NCBI RefSeq assembly: GCF_000007145.1
Contig: NC_003902.1
Location: 1,987,436 to 2,019,435 of the forward strand
Length of the DNA stretch: 32,000 nucleotides
Direction: 5' to 3'
DNA from: Xanthomonas campestris pv. campestris str. ATCC 33913
Lineage (GTDB): Bacteria > Pseudomonadota > Gammaproteobacteria > Xanthomonadales > Xanthomonadaceae
The notes under the pieces were generated by a model that had not been told where the DNA came from, made no database searches, and worked only from the letters and a program-made list of their open reading frames with translations. This document shows positions 3,040-31,779 of the stretch, one piece after another. Position 1 is the stretch's first letter. Every line of letters starts with the position of its first letter. The translations under genes were made by a program, and so were the position numbers.

Positions 3040-4022
3040 TGGCAGCCGACCAGCGCCCGCTTGCGATCGCCGTGATGGGCCCGACCGCCAGCGGCAAGAC
3101 GGCACTGGCGATCGAGGCGGCGCAGCGCTGGGGCGGTGAGATCGTCAGTGTCGACTCCGCGCTGGTCTACCGCGGTCTGGACATCGGTGCAGCCAAGCCG
3201 GACGCGGCGATGCGTGCGGCGGTTCCTCACCATCTGCTCGACCTGCGCGATCCGTGGCAGGTCTATTCGGCGGCGGAATTTGCCGCTGACGCGCGCACCG
3301 CCATGGCGCAGATCGTAGCGCGCGGCAAGATTCCGATCCTGGCGGGCGGGACGGGGCTGTATTTCCGTGCGGCATTGGAGGGGCTGGCGCAGATGCCCGA
3401 AGCCGACCCCGCGGTGCGGCTGGCGATCGCTGCTGAAGCCGAGCAGGTGGGGTGGGGGGCACTGCATGCGCAGCTGGCACGGATTGATCCGGTTGCTGCC
3501 GCGCGCATCCATGCCACCGACCGGCAACGCATCCAGCGTGCGCTGGAGGTCTACCGCATCAGCGGCAAGCCGATCAGCTACTGGCAGACGCGACCAGCGG
3601 GCCCACGTGCGCCGGTGCGGGTGCTCAAACTGGTGCTCGCGCCCCGGCAACGCGCCGTGCTGCATGCACGCATTGCCATGCGCCTGGACGTGATGCTGGC
3701 GGACGGCTTCCTGACCGAGGTCGAGCAGCTGCGCGCGTTGCCGCAGATGCGCGCGGTGGCGGCGCCACTGGATTTGCCGGCGGTGCGGGCAGTGGGCTAC
3801 CGGCAGGCCTGGGAGTATCTGGATGGGGCCGGCAGCCTGGCCGAGTTCCGCGACAAGGCAGTGCAGGCCACCCGGCAGCTGGCCAAGCGGCAGCTGACCT
3901 GGCTGCGTGGCGAGCTCGACGCGCGCTGGTTCGACCCGGAGCGTGATCGCGGTCAATTGGAACAGGCGGTTGCCGGCTTCCTCGGCCAACGGCGCACTAT
4001 GCAGCAGCCTTCAGCCGTGTAA
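3039..4022 (+). CDS. miaA: tRNA dimethylallyltransferase
   Basis: P-loop GPTASGKT, then [16 protein letters not shown] and QRQLTWLR-type C-terminus. Conserved miaA-hfq-hflX order. Confidence 0.95.
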
Positions 4023-4098
4023 CATCCCGTTTCCGGGACCGGCTGGGGAAAGCAGGGTCGACCGGAATCATAAGAACAATAATGAAGAGGATTTTTCG

Positions 4099-4377
4099 AT
4101 GGCCAAGGGGCAATCTTTACAGGATCCATTCCTTAACGCGCTGCGTCGCGAGCGGGTGCCGGTCTCTGTGTATCTGGTCAACGGCATCAAGTTGCAGGGT
4201 ACGATCGAATCGTTCGACCAGTTCGTGGTGCTGCTGCGCAATACCGTGAGCCAGATGGTCTACAAGCACGCCATTTCCACCGTTGTTCCGGCGCGCAACG
4301 TGCGCGTGGGCCCGGGTGGCGGCTATGTGCAATCCAATGAAAACAACCAGGCGGAAGATGACGACGTCGAGCAATGA
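4099..4377 (+). CDS. hfq: RNA chaperone Hfq
   Basis: [46 protein letters not shown] (Sm1/Sm2 motifs). SD gaagagga lies upstream of ATG 4099. The longer in-frame ORF from 3907 overlaps miaA and is not used. Confidence 0.97.
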
Positions 4378-4388
4378 TGGAGTAGTGC

Positions 4389-5708
4389 GTGTTTGATCGC
4401 TCACGCAAGGGTGAACACGCGTTGTTGATTCAGACCCACTCCGGTGGGCCTGCCGAAGAGGATGTGCTGGAGGAGTTCGCCGAGCTTGCCAAGTCGGCGG
4501 GCGCCACGGTAGCGGCCACGCTCACCGCGCGCATCGATAAACCCAGCCCGTCGACATTGATCGGCAGCGGCAAGCTGGAAGAGGTCAAGGCTGCGGCCGA
4601 GGCCACCGGCGCGGATCTGGTGCTGGTCAACCACACCTTGTCGCCGGGCCAGGAGCGCAACCTCGAGCGGTATCTGGAGCGGCGCGTGATCGACCGCACC
4701 GGGCTCATCCTGGATATCTTCGCGCAACGCGCGCGCAGCCACGAAGGCAAGTTGCAGGTGGAACTGGCGCAGCTGCGCCACATGGCCACGCGCCTGGTGC
4801 GCGGTTGGACTCACTTGGAACGTCAGCGCGGCGGTGCGATCGGTCTGCGCGGCCCGGGCGAAACCCAGCTGGAAACCGACCGCCGCCTGCTGCAGAAGCG
4901 TGTGGAGCAGCTGCAGAAGCGGCTGGAAAAAGTCGAAGTGCAGCGGACCCAGATGCGTCGTGCGCGCATGCGCAGCGAATTGCCGCGGATTGCGCTGGTG
5001 GGCTACACCAATGCTGGCAAGTCCACGCTGTTCAATGCGTTGACCGGCGCCGATGCCTACGCGGCCGACCAGCTGTTCGCCACGCTCGACCCCACGGTGC
5101 GGCGCATTGCCTTGCCAGGTGGCAGCGCGGTGCTGGCCGACACGGTGGGCTTCGTGCGGGATCTGCCGCACGAACTGGTGGCTGCATTCCGGTCGACCTT
5201 GTCCGAAGCGCGCGATGCGGATCTGCTGTTGCATATCGTTGATGCGGCGGACCCGTTGCGCGAAGAACGCATCCATCAGGTCGATGAGGTCTTGCAGGCC
5301 GTCGGTGCAGGCGATCTGCCGCAGCTGCTGGTGTTCAACAAGATCGACAAGATCGAGGGCGCCGAGGTGCGCCATGACGCGCAGGACGGCATCCCCGACC
5401 AGGCACGCCGCGAGCGCGTCTGGATTTCTGCGCGTGATGGACGTGGCCTGGAAGAACTGCAGCGTGCGTTGGGCCATCGGCTGGACCTGCGCCACATCAC
5501 CGGTTCGCTCCGCTTGCCGGCCTCTGCCGGTCGTCTGCGCTCCAAGCTGCATCAGCTGGAAGTGATCCGTAGCGAGCAGGTGGACGAGGAGGGCTGGTTG
5601 CTGGAAGTCGACTTGCCCTATGTCGAAGCCGAACGTCTTGCCGCCGGCGAAGACGGTGCACCGCTGCGCGCGTTGTTGCCGGATCGCCGTGAGGACTGGG
5701 AGACCTGA
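4389..5708 (+). CDS. hflX: GTPase HflX
   Basis: GTG start 11 nt after hfq. G1 GYTNAGKST, G3 DTVGF, G4 NKID. HflX N-terminal domain (RAHEGKLQVELAQL). Confidence 0.95.
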   Translation: MFDRSRKGEHALLIQTHSGGPAEEDVLEEFAELAKSAGATVAATLTARIDKPSPSTLIGSGKLEEVKAAAEATGADLVLVNHTLSPGQERNLERYLERRVIDRTGLILDIFAQRARSHEGKLQVELAQLRHMATRLVRGWTHLERQRGGAIGLRGPGETQLETDRRLLQKRVEQLQKRLEKVEVQRTQMRRARMRSELPRIALVGYTNAGKSTLFNALTGADAYAADQLFATLDPTVRRIALPGGSAVLADTVGFVRDLPHELVAAFRSTLSEARDADLLLHIVDAADPLREERIHQVDEVLQAVGAGDLPQLLVFNKIDKIEGAEVRHDAQDGIPDQARRERVWISARDGRGLEELQRALGHRLDLRHITGSLRLPASAGRLRSKLHQLEVIRSEQVDEEGWLLEVDLPYVEAERLAAGEDGAPLRALLPDRREDWET

Positions 5709-6608: not shown

Positions 6609-7119
6609 CACGCGCATTGCGCACTGCTGCACGGCGCGCTGCCTTGCAGGTGCTCCAGGCACGCGCTGCGGCGCCGTCATCCCTGAAGTGTCGAATACCC
6701 GGTAGTTGTAAGGCCGCGCCTCAGCGCGAGAGGCCGTTCGCGTTGCATGTAAGCAGCGGCAGTACCGCATCCTGCGAGGTCACGACCGATCTAAGAGTGG
6801 CTGACAAAACGTAGCAAGCAATTGGCAGGCGAGCTCGGACGGCGCATAGGATCCGGAGTGCTAAGGCTGCACATGAGAATTCCGAGCGCCGGCCGCGCTC
6901 ACCTGTCGGCCGCGCAGTCGGGTTGATGGCTGCTGTAAACCGCGGCCGTGCTCACACAAGCGAGCACGGAGTCGCCTGGCGTTCGTCGCGCGAGCGATGG
7001 ATTCGGTCATGCGCCCGCTGCGTAGATGCGCGAACGGTAGCGTTGCTTGTGACATATCTCGCGGCCGTCGCCGCATGATGCAGTCGCAGCGTCTCACCGC
7101 CTCACCGCCGGGAAACCCA

Positions 7120-12641: not shown

Positions 12642-13673
12642 ATGGATGAGAACAAGAAGCGCGCCCTTTCCGCCGCCCTGAGCCAGATCGAAAAGCAATT
12701 CGGCAAAGGCTCGGTGATGCGCATGGGCGACCGGGTCATCGAGGCCGTCGAGGTCATCCCGACCGGTTCGCTGATGCTGGACATCGCACTGGGGATCGGC
12801 GGCCTGCCGAAGGGCCGCGTGGTCGAGATCTACGGGCCGGAATCCTCGGGCAAGACCACCCTCACACTGCAGGCCATTGCCGAATGCCAGAAGCTGGGCG
12901 GCACCGCGGCCTTCATCGACGCCGAGCATGCGCTGGACCCGATCTATGCCGCCAAGCTGGGCGTCAATGTCGATGACCTGCTGCTGTCGCAGCCGGATAC
13001 CGGTGAGCAGGCGCTGGAAATCGCCGACATGCTGGTGCGTTCGAGCTCGGTGGACATCGTGGTGATCGACTCGGTTGCCGCGCTGACCCCAAAGGCCGAA
13101 ATCGAAGGCGAGATGGGCGATCAGCTGCCCGGCCTGCAGGCCCGTTTGATGAGCCAGGCGCTGCGCAAGCTCACCGGCAACATCAAGCGCTCCAACACGT
13201 TGGTGGTCTTCATCAACCAGCTGCGCATGAAGATCGGCGTGATGATGCCGGGCCAGAGCCCGGAAGTGACCACCGGCGGCAATGCGCTGAAGTTCTACGC
13301 CTCGGTCCGCCTGGACATCCGCCGCATCGGTGCGATCAAGAAGGGTGACGAGATCATCGGCAACCAGACCAAGATCAAGGTGGTCAAGAACAAGCTGGCG
13401 CCTCCGTTCAAGCAGGTCATCACCGAGATCCTGTACGGCGAAGGCATCAGCCGCGAGGGTGAGCTGATCGATATGGGCGTGGAAGCCAAGCTGGTCGACA
13501 AGGCAGGTGCCTGGTACAGCTACGGCGACGAGCGCATCGGCCAGGGCAAGGACAACGCCCGTGGGTATCTGCGCGACAACCCGCAGGTGGCGATCAAGCT
13601 CGAAGCCGAGCTGCGCGAGAAGTTCCAGCCCGCCGAGGCGCCGCGTGAAGCCGGCGAGACCGAGAGCGAGTGA
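12642..13673 (+). CDS. recA: Recombinase RecA
   Basis: [30 protein letters not shown], Walker [10 protein letters not shown], and L1/L2 loop regions. SD gagga lies upstream of ATG 12642. Confidence 0.98.
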
Positions 13674-13684
13674 GTTTTCCCTAT

Positions 13685-13721
13685 CGCGGGGACGGCGGAG
13701 TCAGTGCCGTCGCTCCTCGCG
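13685..13721 (+). other. Imperfect GC hairpin in the recA-recX spacer (possible attenuator)
   Basis: cgcg..gacggc-ggagtcagt-gccgtc..cgcg read directly. Partial termination between recA and recX is known in E. coli. The structure here is weak. Confidence 0.3.
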
Positions 13722-13788
13722 GTAGTTCTATCGAAAGCCAGGAGGGCGGGCGCCACGGACGGCGCATTTACCTTCGGGACACGTCACG

Positions 13789-14277
13789 ATGAGTGAGCAA
13801 GCGCCCGCACCGAAGCGGGGACGTCGGTTCAAGGAACAGACGCCGGTCCAACGTGCACTGGGATTACTGGTGCGCCGTGAACATTCCAAAAAAGAGTTGA
13901 ACCGCAAGTTGCAGGCGCGTGGCATCGAGCCCGAGGCCGCACAGGCCGCCGTTGAGCGGCTCGCAGGCGAGGGCTGGCAGGACGATGTACGCTTTGCAGC
14001 CTCGGTGGTCCGTAACCGGGCCAGTTCGGGGTATGGGCCGTTGCACATCCGCGCAGAACTTGGAACCCACGGCCTGGATAGCGACGCGGTCAGTGCAGCG
14101 ATGGCAACCTTCGAAGGGGACTGGACCGAAAACGCACTCGATCTGATACGTCGTCGTTTCGGCGAGGATGGGCCGGTTGACTTGGCACAGCGGCGCAAGG
14201 CTGCCGACCTGCTGGCGCGGCGCGGCTTCGATGGCAACAGCATTCGGCTGGCAACACGCTTCGACCTTGAGGACTGA
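13789..14277 (+). CDS. recX: RecA regulator RecX
   Basis: Position immediately after recA. About 160-aa helical-repeat protein ([39 protein letters not shown]). Confidence 0.92.
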
Positions 14278-14378
14278 GGGCGTCAGGCCTGCTACCCTTC
14301 GTGGTTTCAGGTTGTTCCGCTCCTCTGCGCCCACATCTCATGGGGTGACCGGGACCACCGCCCGCCCAATGCCAGCCC

Positions 14379-17027
14379 ATGAACGCACCCGCCAAATTCA
14401 GCACTTCCCAGATCCGTAGTGACTTCCTCGCGTTCTTCGAGGGGAAGGGCCACACCATCGTGCCATCCGCGCCGCTGGTGCCGGGCAACGATCCAACCTT
14501 GCTGTTCACCAATTCCGGCATGGTCCAGTTCAAGGATGTCTTCCTTGGCGCGGAAAAGCGCAGCTACGTGCGTGCCGCGGACGTGCAGCGCTGCCTGCGT
14601 GCCGGTGGCAAGCACAACGATCTGGATTCGGTGGGCTACACCGCGCGCCACCACACCTTCTTCGAGATGTTGGGCAACTGGTCGTTCGGTGATTACTTCA
14701 AGAAGGACGCCATTGCCTGGGCGTGGGAGCTGCTGACGCAGGTCTGGAAGCTGCCGGCTGATCGCTTGCTGGTCACGGTGTACCACACCGACGAAGAGGC
14801 CTTTGAACTCTGGCGCGACATGATCGGCATCCCGGAAAGCCGCATCGTGCGCATCGGCGACAACAAGGGCGCGCCGTATGCCTCGGACAACTTCTGGCAG
14901 ATGGCCGACACCGGTCCCTGCGGTCCGTGCACCGAAATTTTCTTCGATCATGGCGATCACATCGCCGGCGGCCCACCGGGTTCGCCCGATGAAGACGGCG
15001 ACCGCTTCATCGAAATCTGGAACCTGGTGTTCATGCAGTTCGATCGCCAGCCAGACGGCACCCTGGTGGCGTTGCCGGCCCCGTGCGTGGATACCGGCAT
15101 GGGCCTGGAGCGGCTGGCCGCCATCCTGCAGCACGTGCACACCAATTACGAAATCGACGTCTTCCAGGCGCTGATCGGTAAGGCCAGCGCGCTGACCGGC
15201 ATTGCGGATCTGGAAAACAAGTCGCTGCGGGTGATCGCCGATCACATCCGCGCCTGTTCGTTCCTGATCGTGGATGGCGTGTTGCCATCCAATGAAGGGC
15301 GTGGCTATGTGCTGCGCCGGATCATCCGTCGCGCGTTGCGGCATGGCTGGATGCTGGGCGTCCGCCAGCTGTTCTTCAGCAAGATGGTGCCCACGCTGGT
15401 CGAGCTGATGGGCGAGGCCTATCCCGAGCTGGTGGTCGCGCAGGAGACCGTGGCGCGTGCGTTGCTGGCCGAAGAAGAACGGTTTGCCGAGACGCTCGAC
15501 GCTGGCATGAAGATCTTCGATGACGTCGCGTCGCGCTCGCAGGAGATCATTCCGGGCGCGGATGCGTTCCGTCTTTACGACACCTACGGCTTCCCGGTCG
15601 ATCTCACCGCCGACATCGCACGTGAGCGCGGAATGCGCGTGGACATGGAGGGCTTTGAGTTCGCCATGGAGCGTCAGCGCGAAACCGCGCGCGCGGCAGG
15701 CAAATTCGGTGGCGGCGTGGCGCTGCCTGCGGATCTGGTGGCCACCATGGCGCCGACCGTGTTCCTTGGCTACGAAGCCCAGGATGCTGACGCGCTGAAG
15801 GTCGTCGCGTTGCTCAAGCAGGGGCGGCCGGTGGACCGTGCCGAGGCCGGTGATGAGGTCATCGTGTTCACCGATCGCACGCCGTTCTACGCCGAATCTG
15901 GCGGCCAGGTCGGCGACAGCGGTCAGCTCAGCGGCACGGACGTCAGTATTGAGGTCGCCGACACACAAAAGTTCGCTGGCCAATTCCATGGGCATGTCGG
16001 GCGTATCGCGGAGGGCGCACTGAAACTTGGCGACGTGTTGTCCGGTGGTATCGATGTGCAGCGTCGTGGCAAGACCATCCTCAACCACTCGGCCACGCAT
16101 CTGCTGCATGCCGCGTTGCGCGAGGTGCTGGGGACCCACGTGCAGCAGAAGGGCTCGCTGGTGGCGCCGGATCGCCTGCGCTTTGACTTCTCGCATTTCC
16201 AGCCGATCACTGCGGAAGAACTTGCAGTGATCGAGCGCAAGGTCAATGCGGAAGTGCGCACCAACCACAGCGTTGAAGTGCACAACATGGCCATGCAGGA
16301 GGCCCTGGACTTCGGTGCGATGGCGCTGTTTGGCGAAAAGTATGGCGAGCGCGTACGCGTGCTCAAGATGGGCGGCTATTCGACCGAACTGTGCGGCGGC
16401 ACCCATGTCAGCCGCACCGGTGACATCGGCTTGTTCAAGATCACCTCTGAAGGCGGCGTCTCTTCCGGCGTGCGCCGCATCGAAGCGGTGACAGGGCAGG
16501 GCGCACTCGACTACGTGGCTGAAGAGGAGCGTCGTCTGGGTGAGGCCGCAAACCTGCTCGGCGGCAACAGCACCGAGATCGTCGACAAGGTGCGGGCGCT
16601 GACCGATCGCCAGAAGCGCCTGGAGCGCGAGCTGGAGTCGCTCAAAGCCAAGCTTGCATCCGGCGCGACCGCCGACCTCGGCGCCAGCGCGGTGGACGTG
16701 GCAGGCGTCAAGGTGATTGCGGTGCGCCTTGAGGGATTCGACGCCAAGGCGTTGCGCGAGGCCATGGATCGCCTGAAACAACAATTGGGCGACTCGGTGA
16801 TCGTGCTGGCCGGCGCTGCAGGCGGCAAGGTCGCCCTGGTGGCCGGCGTGAACGGCAGCCCAACTGGCAAGGTGAAGGCAGGGGAACTCCTTGGCCATAT
16901 CGCCAGTCAGATCGGGGGCAAGGGCGGTGGCCGTCCGGATCTCGCCCAGGGTGGTGGCGAGGACGGGCCCGCCCTTGCGACTGCGCTCCAAGGCGTGCCC
17001 TCCTGGGTCAAGCAACACTTGGGCTGA
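14379..17027 (+). CDS. alaS: Alanine--tRNA ligase
   Basis: [33 protein letters not shown], editing-domain HSATHLLH and CGGTHV, C-terminal [15 protein letters not shown]. Confidence 0.98.
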
Positions 17028-21250: not shown

Positions 21251-21952
21251 TCACTGCGGCAGGTCGAACACCAACACTTCGGCATCACGGGCATCGGCCA
21301 GCACGATCTCCGGCTCGCCCGTCACCTGCAAGGCATCACCGGCCGACAGCACCTGGCCGTTGACGGTCAGGCTACCGCGCGCCACCTGCACATAGCCGAG
21401 GCGGCCCTGAGCCAGCGGGTGCTGCAGGCGACCGTCGCCGTCCAGGATGGTGGCGTACAGGCGCGCATCCTGGTGCAGCTTCAGCGAGCCACCGTCGCCG
21501 TTGGGCGAGGCGATCAGGCGCAAGGTGTTGCGCTTGCTGTCGGCGTCGAAATGCTTTTCCTCGTAGCTGGGCTCGATGCCGTTGCGCTCGGGCATCACCC
21601 AGATCTGCAGGAAGTGCACCGGGTCGCTGGCCGAGTGGTTGAACTCGCTGTGGGTCACGCCGCTGCCGGCGCTCATGCGCTGCACATCTCCGTAATGCAG
21701 GACCGAGCTGGTGCCCATGCTGTCCTTGTGCTCCAGTGCGCCGTCCAGCACGTAGGAAATGATCTCCATGTCGCGGTGGGCATGCGTACCGAAACCTTCG
21801 CCCGCCTTTACCTTGTCTTCGTTGATCACGCGCAGCGGGCCGATGCCCATGTGGCGCGGATCGTGGTAGCTGGCGAAGGAGAAGGTATGACGCGAGGACA
21901 GCCAGCCGTGCTCGGCGCGGCCACGGGTTTCGCTCTTGCGGACAGTCAACAT
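21251..21952 (-). CDS. Pirin-family bicupin protein (YhhW/quercetinase-like)
   Basis: [40 protein letters not shown] cupin metal-site motif, and a second cupin domain. SD ggagaa lies upstream of ATG 21952. Confidence 0.93.
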
Positions 21953-22190
21953 GGTGCTTCTCCTTGGAAAGATTCGAATGAGGCGGAAGGTGCGTTCGCC
22001 TTTACCTTGTCTTCGTTGATCACGCGCAGCGGGCCGATGCCCATGTGGCGCGGATCGTGGTAGCTGGCGAAGGAGAAGGTATGACGCGAGGAGAGCCAGC
22101 CGTGCTCGGCGCGGCCACGGGTTTCGCTCTTGCGGACAGTCAACATGGTGCTTCTCCTTGGAAAGATTCGAATGAGGCGGAAGGTGCGTT
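21803..22190. repeat. Head-to-tail tandem duplication, 2 x 194 bp (21803-21996 and 21997-22190)
   Basis: The copies were aligned by eye at a 194-bp offset over their whole length. The only difference found is C 21899 versus G 22093. Each copy contains the pirin leader, SD, ATG and codons 1-50. Confidence 0.95.
21946..22146 (-). pseudogene. Duplicated 5' fragment of the pirin gene (50 pirin codons plus 16 codons read through the duplicated leader)
   Basis: Translation is [50 protein letters not shown] then [16 protein letters not shown]-stop. The 112-aa track ORF 21946..22284 is this fragment extended upstream into the intergenic region. Confidence 0.75.
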
Positions 22191-22283
22191 TTGCTTGCCC
22201 GTCCCGTTGATGCGTAGTGTGGAGAGATGCCCCGGGTAAAAAAAGCGAGTAGATTTGACTGCTATCATCGAAAAAATCGAACA

Positions 22284-23228
22284 ATGAAAATCAGCCTGGA
22301 TGCGTTGCAAATCCTGGACGCGATCGACCGCCGTGGCTCTTTCACTGCCGCGGCGAAGGTGTTGTTCAAGGTGCCGTCGACGATCTCCTACACGGTCGCC
22401 AAGCTGGAGGAGGACCTGGGCGTTCAGTTGTTCGAGCGCGTTGGCCCCAAGGCCACGCCAACGCAGGCCGGCCGCGAGCTGTTGCGTGAGGGGCGGCAAT
22501 TGCTGCGCGCGGCGCAGGAGCTGGAAGTGCGGGTGCGGCGGGTCGCCTCCGGCTGGGAGTCGGAGTTCGCCATTGGTCTGGACGCGGTGCTGCCGGCGTC
22601 ATTGCTGCTGCCGCAATTGCTGGACTTCTATCGCATCGCTGACAGCACCCGGTTGCGCGTGGTGAGCGAGTCGCTCTCCGGTAGCTGGGAGGCGCTGCTG
22701 GATCGACGTGTGGATCTGGTGGTTGCTGCTGGCGAGGGGCCGAGCGGTGGCGGTTATGTCGCCGAGCCGATCGGCTCGCTGCGGTTCGTGTTCGCAGTGG
22801 CCGCCACGCACCCGCTGGTGGACGCCGGAGTGCTGGGCGTGGCGGAGCTGGCCGAGCATCGCGCGATCGCGGCAGCGGACTCCGCACGCCGGCTGCTGCC
22901 ACGCACGGTGGGGCTGCTGTCCGGCCGCGACGTGCTTACCGTGCCGGACATGCAGACCAAGTTGCAGCTGCAGCTGGCTGGGGCCGGCTATGGCTTCCTG
23001 CCCGAGCCGTACGCGCGCGGCGCATTGCAGGCCGGCGCCCTGCGCGCGCTTGCGGTGGAAACGCACAAGCCGGACGAGACGTTCTACCTGGCGTGGCGTC
23101 CGGGCGAGGAGGGCGAGGCGCTAAGTTGGTGGCGGCAGGCGCTGCGCAGCGAGGGGTTATTTGCGCGCTGGCTGGAGCAGCTGGCCGAAACGTATCGTTC
23201 CGTCCCCACCGGGCAGCCGGTAGCGTAG
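22284..23228 (+). CDS. LysR-family transcriptional regulator, divergent from pirin
   Basis: N-terminal [36 protein letters not shown] followed by a LysR substrate-binding domain. ATG 22284 is preferred over the upstream in-frame start at 22227. Confidence 0.92.
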
Positions 23229-23272
23229 CGATAGGCGGATAATGGCCGCTCGCCGTCGCGCCAGGGTGCCGC

Positions 23273-24265
23273 ATGCAAGGCTTGATCGAACAGTACGGAT
23301 TGGCGCTGGTGTTCGCCAACGTGCTGGCGTTGTCGCTCGGTCTGCCGGTGCCGGCCATGCCGACCCTGGTGCTGGTGGGCGCCGGCTATGCCTTGCATGG
23401 CGGCAGCGCCGCGTGGAGTGCCGCGCTGGCAGCACTGGCTGTTTCGGTATTCGCCAGCGTGCTGGGCGATCTGGTCTGGTATCTGGCCGGGCGCCGTTTC
23501 GGCAATCGCACCTTGCAGTCGCTGTGCCGGCTGTCGCTGTCGCGCGATACCTGCATGAAGAAGACCGAGCGTTTCTTCGGGCGCTGGGGCGTACGCGTGC
23601 TGGCGGTGGCCAAGTTCGTGCCTGGCCTGTCGATGGTATCGGTGCCGATGGCGGGCGCGATGCAGGTGCGGCCAGGAGCATTCCTGCGCTACGACGCGTT
23701 TGGCGCGTTGCTGTGGGCAGCGGTGGGGCTTGGGTTGGGCGCGCTGTTCGCCGATCAGGTGCAGGACGTGCTGCACTTTCTCTCCACGCTGGGCTCGGGC
23801 GCCGTGCTGGTGGTGGCGTTGCTGTTGGCCGGTTATGTCGGCTGGCGCTGGTGGCGCCGCCATACGCTGCTGCGCTCGCTGGAGACCGCGCGCATTGCGG
23901 TCGAAGAACTGGTGCCGATGCTCGCCGCCGACGAAGCGATGCGGCCGGCGGTGCTGGATATCCGCGCGCAGGGCTTTCGCGATCTGCAGCCGTACACGAT
24001 TCCCGGTGCGGTGTTTGCCGATGAGCGCGAGCTGGCGCAGATTCTGGCAACGGTGCCGCGCGATCGCAGCGTGGTGATCTATTGCGCCTGCCCGGATGAA
24101 GTGTCCGCCGCCTGGTTGGCTGGGCGCTTGCGCGAGCGCGGGTATCGCGATGTGCGTCCGCTACTGGGTGGGCTGGATGCCTGGCGCGATGCGGGGCATC
24201 CGGTGGTGTCACTGGTGCCATTGGCCACGCTTGCGCCGACCGGCGAAGCGGGCGCACTGGCCTGA
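23273..24265 (+). CDS. DedA-family membrane protein fused to a C-terminal rhodanese domain
   Basis: The N-terminal ~200 aa are hydrophobic with a DedA/SNARE-associated pattern (GDLVWYLAGRRFG, KFVPGLSMVSVPMAG). The C-terminal rhodanese has active-site loop VVIYCACPDEVSAA and GGLDAWRDAGHP. Confidence 0.85.
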   Translation: MQGLIEQYGLALVFANVLALSLGLPVPAMPTLVLVGAGYALHGGSAAWSAALAALAVSVFASVLGDLVWYLAGRRFGNRTLQSLCRLSLSRDTCMKKTERFFGRWGVRVLAVAKFVPGLSMVSVPMAGAMQVRPGAFLRYDAFGALLWAAVGLGLGALFADQVQDVLHFLSTLGSGAVLVVALLLAGYVGWRWWRRHTLLRSLETARIAVEELVPMLAADEAMRPAVLDIRAQGFRDLQPYTIPGAVFADERELAQILATVPRDRSVVIYCACPDEVSAAWLAGRLRERGYRDVRPLLGGLDAWRDAGHPVVSLVPLATLAPTGEAGALA

Positions 24266-24291
24266 CGCACGGTCCGCTGGATCTGATGGGC

Positions 24292-24323
24292 AAAAAAAAA
24301 CGACCAGCAAGCTGGTCGTTTTT
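24292..24323. terminator. Bidirectional terminator (A9-cgaccagc-aa-gctggtcg-T5)
   Basis: Perfect 8-bp stem flanked by A and T runs. It sits between the DedA-rhodanese stop (plus strand) and the distal tRNA-Arg (minus strand). Confidence 0.85.
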
Positions 24324-24330
24324 CCAAGAA

Positions 24331-24407
24331 TGGTGCGCCCGGAGAGATTCGAACTCCCGACCGCCTGGTTCGTAGCCAGGTACTCTATCCAACTGAGCTA
24401 CGGGCGC
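24331..24407 (-). tRNA. argV: tRNA-Arg (anticodon ACG), encoded CCA
   Basis: The reverse complement is GCGCCCGTAGCTCAGTTGGATAGAGTACCTGGCTACGAACCAGGCGGTCGGGAGTTCGAATCTCTCCGGGCGCACCA. Anticodon stem CCTGG/CCAGG with loop CT-ACG-AA. Confidence 0.95.
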
Positions 24408-24461
24408 ATGTCTTGTTTGAGTGGTGCAGATCCGCCGCAATGCGATCGAACCTTTGTAACT

Positions 24462-24488
24462 AAAAAGACAGCGGTTGAAGGCTGTCTT
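24462..24488 (-). terminator. Hairpin plus T-run between the two tRNA-Arg genes (aagacagc-N8-gctgtctt-ttttt on the minus strand)
   Basis: 8-bp stem read directly. It may be a terminator or an RNA-processing element. Confidence 0.5.
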
Positions 24489-24503
24489 ATGTTGTTCTGA
24501 AGA

Positions 24504-24580
24504 TGGTGCGCCCGGAGAGATTCGAACTCCCGACCGCCTGGTTCGTAGCCAGGTACTCTATCCAACTGAGCTACGGGCGC
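24504..24580 (-). tRNA. argV: tRNA-Arg (anticodon ACG), identical second copy
   Basis: The 77-nt sequence is identical to 24331-24407. Confidence 0.95.
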
Positions 24581-24595
24581 CTCGTCAGGAGCGGA

Positions 24596-24624
24596 ATTAT
24601 GCGGATGCCTGACGCGTGCGTCAA
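24596..24624 (-). promoter_or_regulatory. Strong sigma70-type promoter for the tRNA-Arg pair (TTGACG-17 nt-CATAAT, GC-rich discriminator)
   Basis: Read on the minus strand, the -35 is at 24624-24619 and the -10 at 24601-24596. The tRNA starts 15 nt after the -10. Confidence 0.55.
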
Positions 24625-24648
24625 TCCCTTTGTGACGATCCCGTGGCG

Positions 24649-25500
24649 CTATCGATCGTGCAGCGACGTGCGTAACGCAGCGGCGACCGCGATGGGTGCG
24701 CGCATCCACGCGAAATGGTCGCTGCGCATGCCCAGCGCTGCGTCGTCGAGCAGGCGCAGCGTCGTGGGCGCCTGCGGCATCTTGGCGCAAAGCGCGTGCA
24801 GCGCTGTAGCGGGGCCGAAGCGGTCGCGTGCGAACACCACACCGTCGACCGGGCAGGTGACACTGGCCAGTGCCTGCTCCAGATCCCACGGTGCGCCCGC
24901 AGCGCGGTAGCGATTGCTGCGGCCGACGCGCGCCCAGTCGGCGATCAGGCTGCGCGCTTCGGTCCCCGCAAAGCCGAGCCGCCGCCCGTGCAGCACGCCT
25001 TGCACACGTGCCAGCCATGGCAGGAACCGGTACGCCAACGGCAGCCCATAACGCAGCGGTGACGGAAAGTTGCGCCAGTACGGCGAGCCGCTGGCGACCA
25101 GCCACAGGCGCGCCGCATTGCCCGGATGCAACGCGGCATGGCAGCAGGCCAGTTGCCCACCCAGGCTGTGGCCGCCCAGCAGCCGCGGCAGCGGCGGTGA
25201 CTGCGCAGCGACAATGGCCTGGCTGGCCGGCAGATCATGTTCAAGCAGGGTGCGAAACCCCCAATCGTGGTGACGCGATGCACGCAAGGTGCTGCTGCCG
25301 TTGCCACGCCATTCGTGCACGAAGACCGCAATGCCGCGCTCGGCCAATGCCTGCGCGAATGGCGCGTAGTGCCGGGCCGCCACGCCCAATGCAGGTAACC
25401 ACAACAGGCTGGCGATCGGCTGCGCAGGCGCGTAGTGCAGCAGCTGCCAGCCGTGCCCATCCGCCGCGATGGCCGTGTGTGCGGCGTTGATCAATCCCAT
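24649..25500 (-). CDS. Alpha/beta-fold hydrolase of unknown specificity
   Basis: Nucleophile elbow GHSLGG, candidate His in SDHFAWM. ATG 25500 overlaps the thiD 3' end by 10 nt. The track ORF extends upstream to 25632 only by running through thiD. Confidence 0.8.
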   Translation of the reverse strand: MGLINAAHTAIAADGHGWQLLHYAPAQPIASLLWLPALGVAARHYAPFAQALAERGIAVFVHEWRGNGSSTLRASRHHDWGFRTLLEHDLPASQAIVAAQSPPLPRLLGGHSLGGQLACCHAALHPGNAARLWLVASGSPYWRNFPSPLRYGLPLAYRFLPWLARVQGVLHGRRLGFAGTEARSLIADWARVGRSNRYRAAGAPWDLEQALASVTCPVDGVVFARDRFGPATALHALCAKMPQAPTTLRLLDDAALGMRSDHFAWMRAPIAVAAALRTSLHDR

Positions 25501-26306
25501 GCGTGCGGCGCGGCACCAAAGTGATCCAGCACCACCACATCGCTCTGGCCCGGACGCTGGCCATTGGCAATTGCACGGGCCACATAATCGATCGCGGCCT
25601 CGCAGGCGTTGAGCAACGACAGGCCCTGACACAACTGCGCGGCAATGGCGGCAGAGAGGGTGCAGCCGGTGCCGTGTGTGTCCAGTTCCAGGCGCGGATG
25701 CATGAAGATCTCCTGCGCAACGCCGTCGTCGAACCGATCGATCACGCGCGTGCCTTCGCGCAAATGCCCGCCCTTGAGCAACACGGCGTTGGCGCCCAGC
25801 TCCAGCAAGGCGGCGGTTGCATGGTCGGCGGCATCGGGGGTGTCGATACGGCGGCCGGTGAGTAATTCGGCCTCGGGCGTATTGGGCGTGATCAAGTTCG
25901 CCAGCGGCAACAGGCGAGTGCGCAGTGCGTCCAACGCGGCGTCTTCGAGCAAACGCGCACCGCTGGTGGCCACCATCACCGGGTCGAGCACCACGAATGG
26001 CGGGCGGTACTGTTCGAGCAGGTCGGCCACGCAGTGGATGACCTCGGCGTTGGCCAGCATGCCGAGCTTGACCGCCTGGATCTGGAAATCGGCAAAGCAG
26101 GCATCGACCTGGGCGCGCAGGAATGCCAGGGGCGGCACGTGCACGGCGGTGACACCACGGGTGTGTTGCGCGGTCAGCGCGGTAATGGCGGACAAGCCGT
26201 GCACGCGATGCGCGGCGAAGGTCTTCAGATCGGCCTGGATGCCGGCACCACCGCCGGAATCCGAACCGGCGATGGTCAATGCGGACAGCGTGCTGGGCGT
26301 GGTCAT
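25491..26306 (-). CDS. thiD: Hydroxymethylpyrimidine/phosphomethylpyrimidine kinase
   Basis: [34 protein letters not shown]. The start is ATG 26306 or GTG 26321. Confidence 0.93.
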
Positions 26307-26372
26307 GCGGCGATTCTGCACTGCCGCGGCGCGACTGTGCAGACTCCCTTCAACGCCTTGGATCGTGGTCGA

Positions 26373-26852
26373 TCAGGCGCCGCCGTTGATGGCGATTTCC
26401 GAGAACGCGCCAGTTTGCGGGTCGTACAACGCGCCCCAGAAGGCAGCCCCGCCATCACAGGCACCCACTGCGGTCGTGGCCGGTTTCAGCGAGGGGCCAT
26501 CGGGCAGCTTGAACGCATTGATGTAGATCAGCTCACGCCCATCGACCACCACGCCCACGTATTGGCGGTCGAAGTCGCGCGGCTCGGCGATGGTGGGGGT
26601 GAGTGCGTCCTGGCGCGATTCCAGCAGTTCGATCTGCTGATGGGTCGGCGCCCAGTAGCCGGTGATCCTGCCCGGTTGGCGTGCCGGGCTGTCGCGCGAG
26701 CAGGTGTCCAGCACCTGATCGGCGATGGTCTGCCGTGTGATCACCCACGACTGGCCGCTTTTCAGGTTGGTCGGCACGCTGGCCGGCTGGGTGGTTGCGC
26801 AGCCAGCCAGGGTGAGCAACGTCAGCGCCGCAGCGCTGCGCAGCGTGGGCAT
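26373..26852 (-). CDS. Lipoprotein of unknown function
   Basis: Signal peptide with lipobox [18 protein letters not shown]. Its ATG shares one base with the stop of the upstream PIN-PhoH gene (TGATG). I recognise no family. Confidence 0.75.
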
Positions 26853-28249
26853 CACAGCACCTCCGAAGCGAAGTCGGCCAGCCGCGAACGCTCGCCGCGA
26901 CGCAGCGTGATGTGCGCGCTGTGCGGCCAGGCCTTGAAGCGATCCACCGCATAGGTCAGGCCGGACGTGGTCTCGGTGAGGTAGGGCGTGTCGATCTGCT
27001 CCACGTTGCCCAGGCACACGATCTTGGTGCCGGGGCCGGCACGGGTGATCAGCGTCTTCATCTGCTTGGGCGTGAGGTTTTGCGCTTCATCCAGGATCAG
27101 ATAACGCGACAGGAAGGTGCGCCCGCGCATGAAGTTCATCGAGCGGATCTTGATGCGGCTGGCGAGCAGGTCGTTGGTGGCCGCGCGGCCCCATGAGCCA
27201 CCGTCCTGGTTGTGGGTGAGCACTTCCAGATTGTCGGTGAGCGCGCCCATCCACGGGGTCATCTTTTCTTCTTCGGTGCCGGGCAGGAAGCCGATGTCTT
27301 CGCCCACGCTCACCGTCGCGCGGGTCATGATGATTTCGCGGTAACGCTGCTGGTCCATCGTCTGCGCCAGGCCCGCGGCCAGCGCGAGCAGCGTCTTGCC
27401 GGTGCCGGCGGTGCCGAGCAGGGTGACGAAATCGATCTCCGGGTCCATCAGCGCATTGAGCGCGAAGTTCTGCTCGCGGTTGCGCGCGGCAATGCCCCAG
27501 ACCGCGTGCTGGGTATGGCGGAAGTCATCCACCAGGCACAGCGTGGCCTTGCCGCCGCCGACCTTGGCCACGCGCAGTTCCACTTCGTCTTCGCCCGGCA
27601 GATACAGGTACTGATTGGGATACCAGTCTTCGTCGTCGGCCAGCACGATCTCGTAATGGGTGCGTCCGCGCTCGTTCCAGCTGCGCAGGTCTTCGTTGTG
27701 TTTTTGCCAGAAGTCTTCCGGCAGCTCGATCGCGCCGGTGAACAGCAGGCTGAAATCGTCCAGCGCGCGATCGTTCTGGTAGTCCTCGGCGACCAGGCCG
27801 CTGATGTAGGCCTTGATGCGCAGGTTGATGTCCTTGGACACCAGGATCACCGGCACATCGGGGTTCTCTTCGCGCAGCGCCAGCACCGAGGCGAGGATCT
27901 TGTTGTCCGGCAGCATTGCGCCGAAGGTGCGGCCCGGCTCGATCGGGTGGATCTGGAAATACAGCCGCCCGATCGCGGCCTGGCCCTTGAGCTGGATGCC
28001 CTGCGGATGACTCAGCAGGATGCCGGCCTGGATCTGCTCGGCGTTGGTGTTTTCCAGCAATTCGTCCAGGAAGCGGCTGACCTGGCGCGCGTTGCGGCTG
28101 ACTTCGGAGGTGCCCTTCTTGGCGTTGTCGAGTTCTTCGATCACCTGCATCGGCAGGAAGACATCGTGTTCTTCGAATTTGAACAGCGCGGTGGGATCGT
28201 GCATCAGCACGTTGGTGTCCAGCACGTAGATGCGCTTGCCTCGGGTCAT
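26852..28249 (-). CDS. PhoH-like ATPase with N-terminal PIN domain (PhoH2/YlaK type)
   Basis: PIN motif YVLDTNVLMHD, Walker A GTAGTGKT, Walker B LILDEAQN, and a PhoH C-terminal region. ATG 28249 is preferred over TTG 28261. Confidence 0.9.
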   Translation of the reverse strand: MTRGKRIYVLDTNVLMHDPTALFKFEEHDVFLPMQVIEELDNAKKGTSEVSRNARQVSRFLDELLENTNAEQIQAGILLSHPQGIQLKGQAAIGRLYFQIHPIEPGRTFGAMLPDNKILASVLALREENPDVPVILVSKDINLRIKAYISGLVAEDYQNDRALDDFSLLFTGAIELPEDFWQKHNEDLRSWNERGRTHYEIVLADDEDWYPNQYLYLPGEDEVELRVAKVGGGKATLCLVDDFRHTQHAVWGIAARNREQNFALNALMDPEIDFVTLLGTAGTGKTLLALAAGLAQTMDQQRYREIIMTRATVSVGEDIGFLPGTEEEKMTPWMGALTDNLEVLTHNQDGGSWGRAATNDLLASRIKIRSMNFMRGRTFLSRYLILDEAQNLTPKQMKTLITRAGPGTKIVCLGNVEQIDTPYLTETTSGLTYAVDRFKAWPHSAHITLRRGERSRLADFASEVL

Positions 28250-28331
28250 TGGGTCTTCCAAGTGATGGAGCAGGGGCGAGCCATCGCGCCTGCGCAGGCA
28301 GGGTGATGGAGGACGCGGGAAACGAGGGGAC

Positions 28332-28814
28332 TCACTGTTTGGCGTGCGCCTTCAACGCGGCCAGCACCGCATCGGCATGGCCGGCGACCTTGACCTTGCG
28401 CCAGGCCTGCACGACCTGCCCCTCGGGCGACAGCAGGAAGGTGCTGCGCTCGATGCCGAGCACCTGCTTGCCGTACATGTTCTTTTCCTTGATCACGTCG
28501 AAGGCGCGGCACAGTGCTTCATCGCCATCGCTGACCAGCGGAAATGCAAACCCCTGCTTGGCGCAGAAGTTGTCGTGCGACTTCACCGAATCGCGCGAGA
28601 CGCCCAGGATCTTGGCGCCGGCCTTGTCGAATTCCGGCAGCAGCGCGTTGAAGTCCAGGCCTTCGGTGGTGCAGCCGGGCGTGCTGTCCTTGGGGTAGAA
28701 GTAGATCACCAGCCAGTGGCCGGCATGGGCACGCAAGGTGGTCTGGGTGCCGCCGGACAGCGACAGCGGCAGATCGAAGGTTGCAGCGGGCAGTTCCAGT
28801 ACAGCGTCGGTCAT
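28332..28814 (-). CDS. bcp: Thiol peroxidase Bcp (peroxiredoxin)
   Basis: YFYPKDSTPGCTTE peroxidatic-Cys motif. About 160 aa with a thioredoxin fold. Confidence 0.95.
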   Translation of the reverse strand: MTDAVLELPAATFDLPLSLSGGTQTTLRAHAGHWLVIYFYPKDSTPGCTTEGLDFNALLPEFDKAGAKILGVSRDSVKSHDNFCAKQGFAFPLVSDGDEALCRAFDVIKEKNMYGKQVLGIERSTFLLSPEGQVVQAWRKVKVAGHADAVLAALKAHAKQ

Positions 28815-28852
28815 CGTTGCTCAGCCTGAAGGGGAGAGGCGGTCGGTGCCGA

Positions 28853-29203
28853 TCAGGCCGGCCCGACGTCCATCCCATCATAAGCAGCCACATGGAAACG
28901 TTTGGCGAGTGCATCGAACGCGGCATTGCGCTGATTCAGCGTTTCCAGGGTGTGGTGTTCCAGTTTGTCCACATGCAGGAAGTACGACTCTTCGTCGTCA
29001 CCATCGTCCTCATCGCGTTCGCCGAGAAAGATATCGATGACGCGGTAGCCGTCCTTGGTCAGTTGCTCGGCCAGCTGCTGCAGCGGTTGCTGCGCCGGAT
29101 CGGCAAAGAAGTATTCCCAGCGCAACGGGCCGTCCAGGTTCCAGTCGGTTTCCGAGCGGATGTGGTCGAACATCTGTTTCAGCGCGGACATCGCGATGGC
29201 CAT
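28853..29203 (-). CDS. RraB-like (regulator of RNase E activity B family) acidic protein
   Basis: An acidic stretch (ERDEDDGDDEE) and C-terminal AKRFHVAAYDGMDVG resemble E. coli RraB AEKFDVEYDGWG. SD aggag is present. The family call is by eye only. Confidence 0.6.
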   Translation of the reverse strand: MAIAMSALKQMFDHIRSETDWNLDGPLRWEYFFADPAQQPLQQLAEQLTKDGYRVIDIFLGERDEDDGDDEESYFLHVDKLEHHTLETLNQRNAAFDALAKRFHVAAYDGMDVGPA

Positions 29204-29216
29204 GCGAACTCCTGTC

Positions 29217-29792
29217 TTAAAACTTCATCGGGTCCATGATCGCGTCGAGATTGAGGTGATCACAGAATTCCAGGAAATCATCGCGCAAGGCAGCGATGTG
29301 CATGTTGGCCGGCACGCCGATGGTCACCTGCGCAGAGAACATCTCCGCACCGGTCTGCATCGCGCGGTAACGGGTGCTCTGCAGGTTCTCGATGGTGATG
29401 CCCTGGCGGTCGAAGAAATCGGCAAGCTGGAACAGGATGCCGGGCTTGTCGGCGGCGATCACCTCGACGATGTACGGCAGCAGATTGGATTGCGCCTGCT
29501 TGGGGCCGGTGCGGTACCACACCAGCTTCAGGCCTTCTTCGCGTTCGAGCCGCGTCAGCATGGCTTCGAGCTTGGCAACCGAGTCCCAGGAGCCGGTGGC
29601 CAGCGCGGTGACCGAGACATCGCGCCCCACGGTGGCCAGGCGGGCGTCCACGAGATTGCAGCCGCTGTCGGCGATGCGGCGGGTGACGGGCAACAGGGGG
29701 GACTCCGGATGCGTCGTGTAGGCGTTGATCAGGAGGTGGTTTTCGGTCGGCGAAGGCCGGGGAGTCGAGTCAGTCAAAGGGGCTTCCGGCAT
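29217..29792 (-). CDS. gcvR: Glycine cleavage system transcriptional repressor GcvR-like (tandem ACT domains)
   Basis: SGCNLVDARLATVG and GSWDSV match the GcvR pattern (E. coli SCGCNIEDSRLAMLG, GSWNAI). The position divergent from dapA matches E. coli. ATG 29792 is preferred over longer in-frame starts. Confidence 0.8.
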   Translation of the reverse strand: MPEAPLTDSTPRPSPTENHLLINAYTTHPESPLLPVTRRIADSGCNLVDARLATVGRDVSVTALATGSWDSVAKLEAMLTRLEREEGLKLVWYRTGPKQAQSNLLPYIVEVIAADKPGILFQLADFFDRQGITIENLQSTRYRAMQTGAEMFSAQVTIGVPANMHIAALRDDFLEFCDHLNLDAIMDPMKF

Positions 29793-29935
29793 TGCATCAG
29801 GCTGAATGGCCGCCCGGGCAGGCGCCCTGGCGGTGACCAGCATACTTGCCCGTGCTTTCGCGCCGCAAGTAACATGCAGGCGGCCACAACCCGCGTGCGC
29901 GCGGGCCTTTCCTGTCACGTAAGAGCAGCAGAATC

Positions 29936-30844
29936 TTGTCCCTTTCCGGCATCATCACCGCGCTGGCGACCCCTTTCGGGCCGGACGGCACACTCGACCT
30001 GGATGCCTGGCGACGGCTGCTGGAGCAGCAGCTGCACGGCGGTGTCCAGGGAATCGTGGTTGCCGGCTCGACCGGCGAAGCGGCGGCACTGAGCGACGAC
30101 GAGTACGACACGCTGGTGCGTGCGGCCGTGGCACAGGTGGCCGGTCGTGTGCAGGTACTGGCTGGCACCGGGCTCTCCGGTACCGCAAAAACCATCGCGC
30201 AGACCCGCCGTGCCGCCACGCTGGGCGCGCAGTACGCGCTGGTGGTGACGCCGCCTTACGTGCGGCCCACCCAGGCCGGCCTGCTGGCGCACTTCCAGGC
30301 GGTTGCCGACAACGGCGGCCTGCCGGTGGTGCTGTACAACGTGCCGGGCCGTACCGGCTGCGACCTGCTGCCGGAAACGGTCGCCGCGCTGGTGAGCCAC
30401 CCGAACATCGTCGGCATCAAGGAAGCGCGCAGCGAACCGGAGCGGGTTGCCGCGCTGGTGGCCATGCGCAGCGACAGATTCGTGGTGCTCAGCGGTGACG
30501 ACGGCAGCGCCGCCCAGTCAATGCTGGCCGGCGCCGACGGCCTGGTGTCGGTGGCGTCCAACGCGCTGCCGTCGGCCTACCGCCGGCTCTGCGATCTGGC
30601 CCGCACTGGTCAGCACGAGGCCGCCAACGCCTGGGACACGCGTCTGAGCGAGTACCACAGCTTCTGCGGCATCGAATCCAATCCCATCCCCGTCAAGGCG
30701 CTGCTGCAGCGCGCCGGGATCGGCCACGGCCTGCGCTTGCCGTTGCTGCCACTTTCTGCGGCCCATCAGCCGGCCGCCGACCGCCTTGCCGCCAACGCAG
30801 TTGCGTTGGAAGCGCTTTCCAGCCGCGAAATGCTCGCGGCCTGA
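29936..30844 (+). CDS. dapA: 4-hydroxy-tetrahydrodipicolinate synthase
   Basis: [17 protein letters not shown], active-site Lys in IVGIKEA. The apparent start is TTG at 29936. Confidence 0.94.
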
Positions 30845-30860
30845 CCCAGGAGATCTATCG

Positions 30861-31379
30861 ATGCGTCATTCCGTTTCCCCCGTCCGCGTGCTCTCGCTCG
30901 CGTTGCTGGCGACCGCCACCGTCGCCGCCACGAACGGCTGCAGCTGGTTCCACAAGGGCGCGCGCGGCGACTATGCGCTGGCCCCGGAGGCACGTCCGCT
31001 GGAAGTGCCGCCGGATCTGAACCTGCCCGACACCTCCGGTGCCATGAAGGTGCCGACGCTGGCGTCCACCACCCAGCAGAACGCCAACACGCCGCCATCG
31101 GCCAGCGCCAACAGCGGCTTCACCGTGCCGGGCGAGCGCGATGCGGTGTTTGCCAAGGTGGGCGACGCGCTGGCCGATATCCCGGGCCTGACCATCGCCA
31201 GCAAGGCGCAGATGCTGGGCTCCTACGACGTCACCTACGAGGGCGCCAGCTTCCTGGTGCGCGTGGTCAAGGTCGAAGCCGGCAGCTACGTCTCGGCGGT
31301 TGATCCGCGCGGCATGCCTGCCACTGCGGCGGCGCCGGTGGCGTTGATCGCCTCGCTGAAGGGCAAGCTGGGCGGCTGA
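30861..31379 (+). CDS. bamC: Short BamC/NlpB-like outer-membrane lipoprotein
   Basis: SD aggag. Lipobox LLATATVAATNG-C. LEVPPDL motif. The position directly after dapA matches the dapA-bamC arrangement of E. coli. It is only 172 aa. Confidence 0.6.
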   Translation: MRHSVSPVRVLSLALLATATVAATNGCSWFHKGARGDYALAPEARPLEVPPDLNLPDTSGAMKVPTLASTTQQNANTPPSASANSGFTVPGERDAVFAKVGDALADIPGLTIASKAQMLGSYDVTYEGASFLVRVVKVEAGSYVSAVDPRGMPATAAAPVALIASLKGKLGG

Positions 31380-31402
31380 GGCCGGTTGGCAGTGCAGACA
31401 GC

Positions 31403-31429
31403 AAAACGGGCGCCCAGGGCGCCCGTTTT
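31403..31429. terminator. Bidirectional terminator (aaaacgggcgcc-cag-ggcgcccgtttt)
   Basis: Perfect 12-bp stem lying between the convergent bamC-like and fdxA genes. Confidence 0.85.
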
Positions 31430-31455
31430 GTATTTGCGGCCGGCGGCGCTACGGA

Positions 31456-31779
31456 TCAGCGCTGCAGCAGCGGCAATTTGTCCGGCTTGCCGTCCCACTC
31501 GGCGGCGTCGGGCAACGGCTCCTGGCGCACTGTCAGCACCGGCCAGGCCTTGGCCAGCTCGGCGTTGAGGGCAACGAAGGCTTCCTGTCCCGCCGGCACG
31601 TCGTCCTCGGGATAGATCGCGTTGGCCGGGCACTCAGGCTCGCACAGGGTGCAATCGATGCACTCATCCGGGTCGATGACCAGAAAGTTCGGGCCTGCGT
31701 GGAAGCAATCCACCGGACAGACCTCGACGCAGTCGGTGTATTTGCACTTGATGCAGTTTTCGGTGACAACAAAAGGCAT
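31456..31779 (-). CDS. fdxA: 7Fe ferredoxin (Azotobacter FdxA type, [3Fe-4S][4Fe-4S])
   Basis: [26 protein letters not shown] and [12 protein letters not shown] cysteine clusters. ATG 31779 is preferred over the upstream in-frame start at 31806. Confidence 0.93.

Follow-up and report, generated by a model that had tools for sequence, protein, structure and literature searches.

The divergent pirin-lysR region of Xanthomonas campestris pv. campestris ATCC 33913 raises a simple question: why does the start of the pirin gene occur twice, head to tail, in front of a complete copy of that gene, and does the additional copy matter? A first-pass annotation of the window (the whole stretch of DNA that was analysed, 32 kb in length) described the repeat and offered three explanations for it, namely a reversible switch in copy number that acts on a stress gene under LysR control, a strain-specific mutation, or an assembly artefact. 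The analysis reported here leads to a different answer. The repeat is probably a tolerated, near-neutral, vertically inherited tandem duplication allele that segregates in one lineage.

The array at 21803-22190 is the only one that Tandem Repeats Finder detects within the 32-kb window (period 194, 2.0 copies, 99% matches, 0 indels, score 769). Its main features are as follows:

21803-21996, minus strand: gene-proximal 194-bp unit, made of a 44-nt leader and codons 1-50, running on into the rest of the intact pirin gene (Tandem Repeats Finder and base comparison)
21997-22190, minus strand: distal (promoter-proximal) 194-bp unit with identical leader, Shine-Dalgarno, ATG and codons 1-50, adjoining the unduplicated promoter/operator region (Tandem Repeats Finder and base comparison)
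21996-21997: novel junction, read on the minus strand as ...AAGGCG/AACGCACC..., identical in every two-unit locus examined (sequence comparison)
21972-21979: leader palindrome ATTCGAAT of the proximal unit, kept in the campestris/hortorum group but not in X. translucens or Stenotrophomonas (sequence)
22166-22173: leader palindrome ATTCGAAT of the distal unit (sequence)
21899, minus strand: variable site in the proximal unit, minus-strand G (CTG), ancestral (alignment)
22093, minus strand: variable site in the distal unit, minus-strand C (CTC), derived (alignment)

The arrangement and content of the units (44-nt leader, Shine-Dalgarno, palindrome, ATG, and codons 1-50) are those given by the first-pass annotation, and the base-by-base comparison returned the same single mismatch, C at 21899 versus G at 22093. 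The mismatch is synonymous, as had been stated, both codons encoding Leu18 (CTG in the proximal unit, CTC in the distal one). The Shine-Dalgarno AAGGAGAAG is found in both leaders, at 21957-21965 and 22151-22159. The increase in pirin-lysR spacing was also estimated correctly: it is 331 nt in the window (21953-22283) versus 137 nt in one-unit strains. Because the flanks differ from the first base outside both ends, the unit boundaries are exact, and the comparison of the unit ends revealed no microhomology at the 21996/21997 junction. Adjacent head-to-tail units, joined by a novel junction that is missing from relatives, identify the array as a tandem duplication. Elsewhere in the window, Rfam recognized, above gathering score, the Xanthomonas small RNAs sX7 (13673-13768, plus strand, 117.7 bits) and sX9 (6799-6874, minus strand, 52.6 bits). 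Past the rhodanese/VTT-domain gene, there is a tandem pair of tRNA-Arg(ACG) genes (24331-24407 and 24504-24580, minus strand), 173 nt apart and with equal Rfam scores.

The duplication is a real, inherited variant, present in about half of one X. campestris pv. campestris lineage. A 66-aa ORF that is specific to the duplication can be used as its tracer. By exact-sequence look-up, this ORF was retrieved from 174 assembly-collection blocks, 34 of them with contigs >1 Mb. Its records, on 102 contigs, bear names including 'hypothetical protein [Xanthomonas campestris]', AAM41022.1, and Q8P9W6_XANCP, and AAM41022.1 has been part of the ATCC 33913 reference annotation since its beginning. One and the same junction is found across many independent complete genomes. 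As it recurs in the genomes of independent projects, the assembly artefact considered by the first-pass annotation is excluded. In one assembly (CM002622.1, locus L103), a 100-N scaffold gap (positions 2901-3000 of the locus) is located exactly where the distal unit starts, with unrelated TspO genes beyond it, not lysR. The repeat broke the short-read assembly of CM002622.1, and the scaffold is probably misjoined.

The distribution of the two-unit allele is narrow. Within-species sampling was based on exact-protein look-ups, taking the 24 blocks with the longest contigs for each query. For the window's exact pirin allele, two units were found in 11 of the 24 longest contigs and one unit in the other 13, including CP000050. 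For three other X. campestris pirin alleles, B100-type and pv. raphani type included, two units were found in 0 of 73 contigs, every displayed locus being verified by sequence. The orthologous region of related Xanthomonas, whose comparison had been recommended, was covered by a scan of GTDB species representatives, in which X. campestris itself is not among the matches listed. Among the matches listed, all 80 loci of other species have one unit only, with no second copy of the gene's first 60 nt. From this distribution across alleles and species, it follows that the duplication is a polymorphism within one lineage of one pathovar.

The variable site provides information about the history of the two units. 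G (CTG) is ancestral, since all other species and all other X. campestris alleles have it, and the one-unit loci with the window's pirin allele all share the derived C (CTC). Three states were observed among two-unit alleles: C-G (most of them, the window included), G-G (L081, L083/L088, and L103), and C-C (L104, which is CP011946). In CP011946, the proximal unit moreover begins with a private A>G change, which alters the 66-aa ORF by N51D. Locus L081 has the same flanks as the window over 6.4 kb, yet is G-G. Together, the three states and L081 indicate that sequence is exchanged between the units, or between them and other alleles. The first-pass annotation had considered the duplication young because its units are so similar. 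This holds in part only: with three states observed, and the derived C shared with one-unit strains, the near-identity of the units is kept up at least partly by exchange, and is no simple clock.

The flanks of the two-unit allele are diverse. Over 13.8 kb, it is found on at least five different flanking haplotypes, up to 123 sites apart, which refutes the strain-specific mutation put forward earlier. These 13.8-kb flanks form a visible recombination mosaic. Upstream of pirin's promoter, over about 22300-31500 of the window (lysR and the genes beyond it), two or three divergent haplotypes alternate in blocks with sharp limits, recombined in combinations that differ among strains. Homologous recombination is common around the pirin-lysR locus. 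Some strains also differ by insertions. In JAHBQQ010000001.1 (L131), the segment 14539-20702 contains phage-type integrase and tail-fibre-like genes after the PAS/MCP gene, where other strains have csrA-alaS-recX-recA. It looks like a strain-specific prophage insertion, and a search over 13000-15000 revealed no tRNA at its edge. In some strains with pirin allele P0007 (L105 and L109, positions 3874-4672), pirin and the PAS/MCP gene are separated by an inserted IS element (DDE_Tnp_1 transposase, 266 aa).

One derived state in the flanks, a C at alignment column 3752, some 1 kb downstream from where pirin starts, is present in all two-unit loci but CP011946 and in no one-unit locus. CP011946 (L125, two units, C-C) and JAHBRH010000002 (L130, one unit, C) differ, extra unit aside, at 2 of 13,845 aligned columns, and one of these two differences is the private junction SNP. 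Other locus pairs differ at 10-123 columns. The junction has no microhomology and is yet the same everywhere, so that its independent re-creation is very unlikely. Given this identity of the junction and the near-identity of the two loci, the pair marks a recent copy-number change. The most economical reading of this change is that the units of a two-unit allele in the C-C state recombined and the allele collapsed, although the two-unit allele may instead have been imported on a short recombination tract. The recombinational instability that the first-pass annotation expected of the repeat is, therefore, borne out in part, by this pair and on an evolutionary time scale. Collapse would be infrequent, because all 13 of the 13 one-unit contigs carry C, and repeated collapse of C-G alleles would yield G about half of the time. 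No three-unit allele was found in any locus examined.

The consequences of the duplication for the gene depend on what was copied and on what was left in place. At the pirin start, three overlapping features have to be distinguished:

21251-21952, minus strand: intact pirin gene, 233 aa, YhhW-type, quercetin 2,3-dioxygenase family (Pfam and PDB alignment)
21946-22146, minus strand: 66-aa upstream ORF, made of pirin residues 1-50 and 16 residues from the proximal leader, hypothetical protein AAM41022.1 / Q8P9W6_XANCP (ORF list and look-up)
21946-21952, minus strand: ATGTTGA, in which the TGA of the upstream ORF (21948-21946) overlaps the pirin ATG (21952-21950), with zero untranslated gap (sequence)

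The 233-aa pirin protein is a bicupin, with the Pfam domains Pirin (PF02678) and Pirin_C_2 (PF17954). Its residues 1-232 align end to end with the E. coli YhhW structures PDB 6uts/1tq5 (E ~3e-72), and it is far less similar to YhaK than to YhhW in the structure-database alignment. The metal ligands H57, H59, H101, and E103, aligned with 6uts/1tq5, are all C-terminal of residue 50. With its bicupin architecture, Pirin N- and C-terminal domains, and H-H-H-E metal site, the protein has the predicted characteristics of a YhhW-type quercetinase. No NCBIfam family was found for pirin or for the 66-aa ORF.

Since 194 nt do not make up a whole number of codons, the distal ATG (22146) opens a 66-codon ORF that reads through the proximal leader. 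This ORF has its own Shine-Dalgarno and ATG, both the same as those of pirin, and a stop that overlaps the downstream start, which is the form of a translationally coupled upstream ORF. The true pirin start retains its own 44-nt leader and Shine-Dalgarno in the two-unit allele. Since the proximal Shine-Dalgarno is kept, pirin initiation independent of the upstream ORF is also conceivable, and coupling between the two is putative. The 66-aa product is most likely a non-functional by-product.

Upstream of the distal unit, the control region contains the following features:

22267-22281: candidate LysR-type box TTCGATTTTTTCGAT, TCG-N7-CGA (T-N11-A dyad), abutting the lysR ATG and outside the duplication, conserved across Xanthomonas species (box form as in PMC5031710)
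22284-23228, plus strand: divergent LysR-family regulator, 314 aa, untouched by the duplication (Pfam HTH_1 and LysR_substrate)
22216-22221, minus strand: inferred pirin -10 hexamer CACACT (NANACT across species), deduced from the conservation alignment and missed by a consensus scan

A protein with HTH_1 and LysR_substrate domains, encoded divergently from its neighbor, and a T-N11-A dyad between the two genes are what is found in a LysR regulator-target pair. The 22267-22281 box and the divergent lysR thus suggest a putative LTTR-controlled pirin arrangement. For the regulator itself, the closest curated NCBIfam model is PunR, with a score below the model cut-off. In an alignment of intergenic regions from 14 additional Xanthomonadaceae loci and from two X. 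campestris loci with one unit, three conserved blocks stand out, all outside the duplicated unit: TTCGA(A/T)TTTTTCGAT, which adjoins the lysR ATG, CAAATCTACTCGCTTTTT, and (G/C)A(G/C/A)ACTACGCATCAA. If NANACT (22221-22216) is read as the pirin -10, transcription would start at about 22208 and the LysR box would be centered at about -66. A location of about -66 is the textbook position of an LTTR box. The duplicated unit would start about 18 nt downstream of this transcription start and carry no promoter, and the two-unit allele would be expressed as a single transcript, with a translated leader longer by 194 nt. No sigma-70-like site was found on either strand of 21700-22400 by the consensus scan, which misses even native promoters, and the sole terminator-like match in the same interval is at the junction, on the non-transcribed sense. 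ARAGORN reports an 83-nt tRNA-Ile(TAT) at 22723-22805 (plus strand) within lysR; it has no Rfam confirmation and is probably a false positive. No paper on the pirin-lysR locus of X. campestris was found in the literature, and one on the LysR Crt1 was set aside, as it deals with a different gene, not with this LysR.

In the leader, AAGGAGAAG (21957-21965) is perfectly complementary to CTTCTCCTT (21875-21883; codons 24-26, TFSF motif), a match repeated at +194, and the two segments are paired in the predicted fold of each unit. The predicted probability of being unpaired, for the region from the Shine-Dalgarno to the AUG, is 0.46 in the one-unit versus 0.41-0.42 in the two-unit context, and the accessibility of the ribosome site is predicted to be the same in both. 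Compared with shuffled sequences, the leader fold has no excess of stability (z = +1.03). The palindrome ATTCGAAT was considered as a second LysR operator, a role that is unsupported: it has no TCG-N7-CGA dyad and is unconserved beyond the closest species. In [Pseudomonas] boreopolis (L011), the pirin leader contains ATCGATAGAATCGAA (TCGA-N6-TCGA), just 5' of the Shine-Dalgarno and similar to the LysR box. This hints that TCGA motifs in pirin leaders may act as a second operator in some lineages.

The following scenario would account for these observations. The lineage in question has the pirin protein allele of ATCC 33913 and CP000050. A single illegitimate join, without microhomology, would have duplicated codons 1-50 together with the 44 nt of 5' leader that precede them. 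The duplication would be tolerated because nothing was broken, the control region and the gene being kept and the insert being translated. Beside the distal unit, lysR, the LysR box, and the conserved promoter blocks all remain, and the inserted 194 nt would be translated as the 66-codon ORF ending on the true start (ATGTTGA). As the stop of this ORF overlaps the pirin start, ribosomes would cover the extra leader and could re-initiate. Because the 194 nt are near-identical, the units would exchange sequence and occasionally collapse to one by homologous recombination, on an evolutionary time scale and not as a programmed switch. The allele would since have drifted and have been moved by recombination inside the lineage, with occasional gene conversion. 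A direct repeat of 194 bp is expected to collapse at measurable rates by RecA-dependent repeat deletion. Its long persistence is, therefore, mildly surprising if the allele is strictly neutral, and its presence in about half of the lineage, on several flanking haplotypes, could instead reflect selection. A quantitative effect of the duplication on the amount of pirin made is also conceivable.

Selection would mean an adaptive cis-regulatory variant, in which the longer translated leader, the coupling, or the second palindrome alters pirin output and an intermediate frequency is maintained. This is an unlikely explanation. The frequency of about 46% among the sampled lineage genomes and the number of haplotypes (at least five) would fit with it, but recombination, as seen in the mosaic flanks, is able to spread a neutral allele. 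The stop/start overlap does have the form of translational coupling, but no change in ribosome-site accessibility is predicted, and the leader fold is not above shuffles (z = +1.0). Similarly, the palindrome is kept in the closest species, but without the TCG-N7-CGA dyad of the LysR box. The E. coli ortholog yhhW is LTTR-activated and hydroquinone-induced (PMC5031710), which would also favor this explanation. Against it, one unit suffices in all other X. campestris lineages and in all other species. A more ambitious proposal, and a quite doubtful one, is that the two-unit allele is a selected, heritable, and revertible expression variant of a flavonoid-/quinol-detoxifying pirin, the coupled start copy shifting output up or down. 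If this were true, RecA collapse and gene conversion would move lineages between states, constituting a 'duplication rheostat' at the 5' leader of a crucifer pathogen gene.

The reversible switch suggested by the first-pass annotation would be a high-frequency one, with phase variation through a tandem duplication that is gained and lost, as described for pneumococcal cap3A, and is very improbable. It is true that the repeat is a substrate for homologous recombination, that sequence exchange between its units is evident, and that a near-identical one-/two-unit pair exists. Nevertheless, the pirin gene is uninterrupted and its promoter region intact in both states, with unchanged predicted accessibility, and a three-unit allele is absent from all loci examined. 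In addition, copy number and a flanking SNP at a distance of about 1 kb are linked in all two-unit loci but one, and the presence of C in 13 of 13 sampled one-unit contigs argues against many independent C-G collapses.

It is scarcely credible that the 66-aa ORF encodes a functional new small protein. Its Shine-Dalgarno and ATG are identical to those of pirin, which makes its translation almost certain if pirin is translated, but the product would be a 50-residue cupin-barrel fragment without any of the four metal ligands of pirin. It reaches 16.9 bits against Pfam Pirin, under the cut-off, its tail derives from leader sequence, and one strain already has N51D at the junction. An assembly or sequencing artefact is the least credible of all, since, despite the short-read trouble at this locus (the 100-N gap of CM002622 where the distal unit begins), dozens of complete genomes obtained independently have the same junction, and the units are told apart by a SNP whose states vary among strains.

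A tolerated, near-neutral duplication allele thus remains the probable explanation. It accounts for the 'hypothetical protein' AAM41022.1 / Q8P9W6 as a by-product of partial gene duplication, and it flags the locus as a spot where short-read assemblies break or are mis-scaffolded. The 194-bp length difference, together with one SNP, constitutes a simple PCR-sized marker that splits one pathogen lineage. The locus also illustrates, in nature, how a short tandem duplication evolves in concert and probably collapses, having persisted owing to the position at which its reading frame ends. Its significance would be greater only if pirin expression or host interaction depended on which of the two alleles is present.

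Comparison with known systems helps to place the locus. Ordinary short tandem (segmental) duplications, studied by Roth, Andersson, Lovett, and others, arise through illegitimate recombination and disappear when their copies recombine in a RecA-dependent manner. The pirin repeat resembles them in being head-to-tail, near-identical, and polymorphic among close relatives, with an exact novel junction, exchange between its copies, and one recent copy-number change. Unlike them, it is unusually long-lived and widespread (about half of the lineage, several haplotypes), and has no microhomology at its junction. In translationally coupled upstream ORFs, the stop and start codons overlap. The 66-aa ORF is similar, with a strong Shine-Dalgarno and a TGA inside the first two codons of pirin, coupling being putative. 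It differs from them as an accidental copy of pirin's own start, absent from related species, and not a conserved leader peptide.

In Streptococcus pneumoniae cap3A, a reversible tandem duplication inside the ORF switches the gene off, and its precise loss restores the single copy (Waite et al. 2001, as summarized in PMC11163986). With cap3A, as described in that summary, the pirin locus has only the substrate in common, a gene-associated tandem duplication in the range of tens to hundreds of bp. Unlike the duplication summarized there, that of pirin leaves the gene, the ribosome site, and the promoter region in place, so that an on/off state is not apparent: the gene still encodes all 233 aa of pirin and has retained a Shine-Dalgarno and an ATG of its own. 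The E. coli LTTR YhaJ activates yhhW and yhaK on hydroquinone via a T-N11-A box (PMC5031710), and an LTTR-controlled pirin is, therefore, a familiar arrangement. The regulator studied here differs from YhaJ, being closest to PunR (below cut-off), with a TCG-N7-CGA box versus TCA-N7-TGA, and LysR control of pirin is putative. The resemblance to the YhaJ-yhhW pair lies in a pirin that matches YhhW over its full length, a divergent LysR-family gene, and a T-N11-A dyad between the two.
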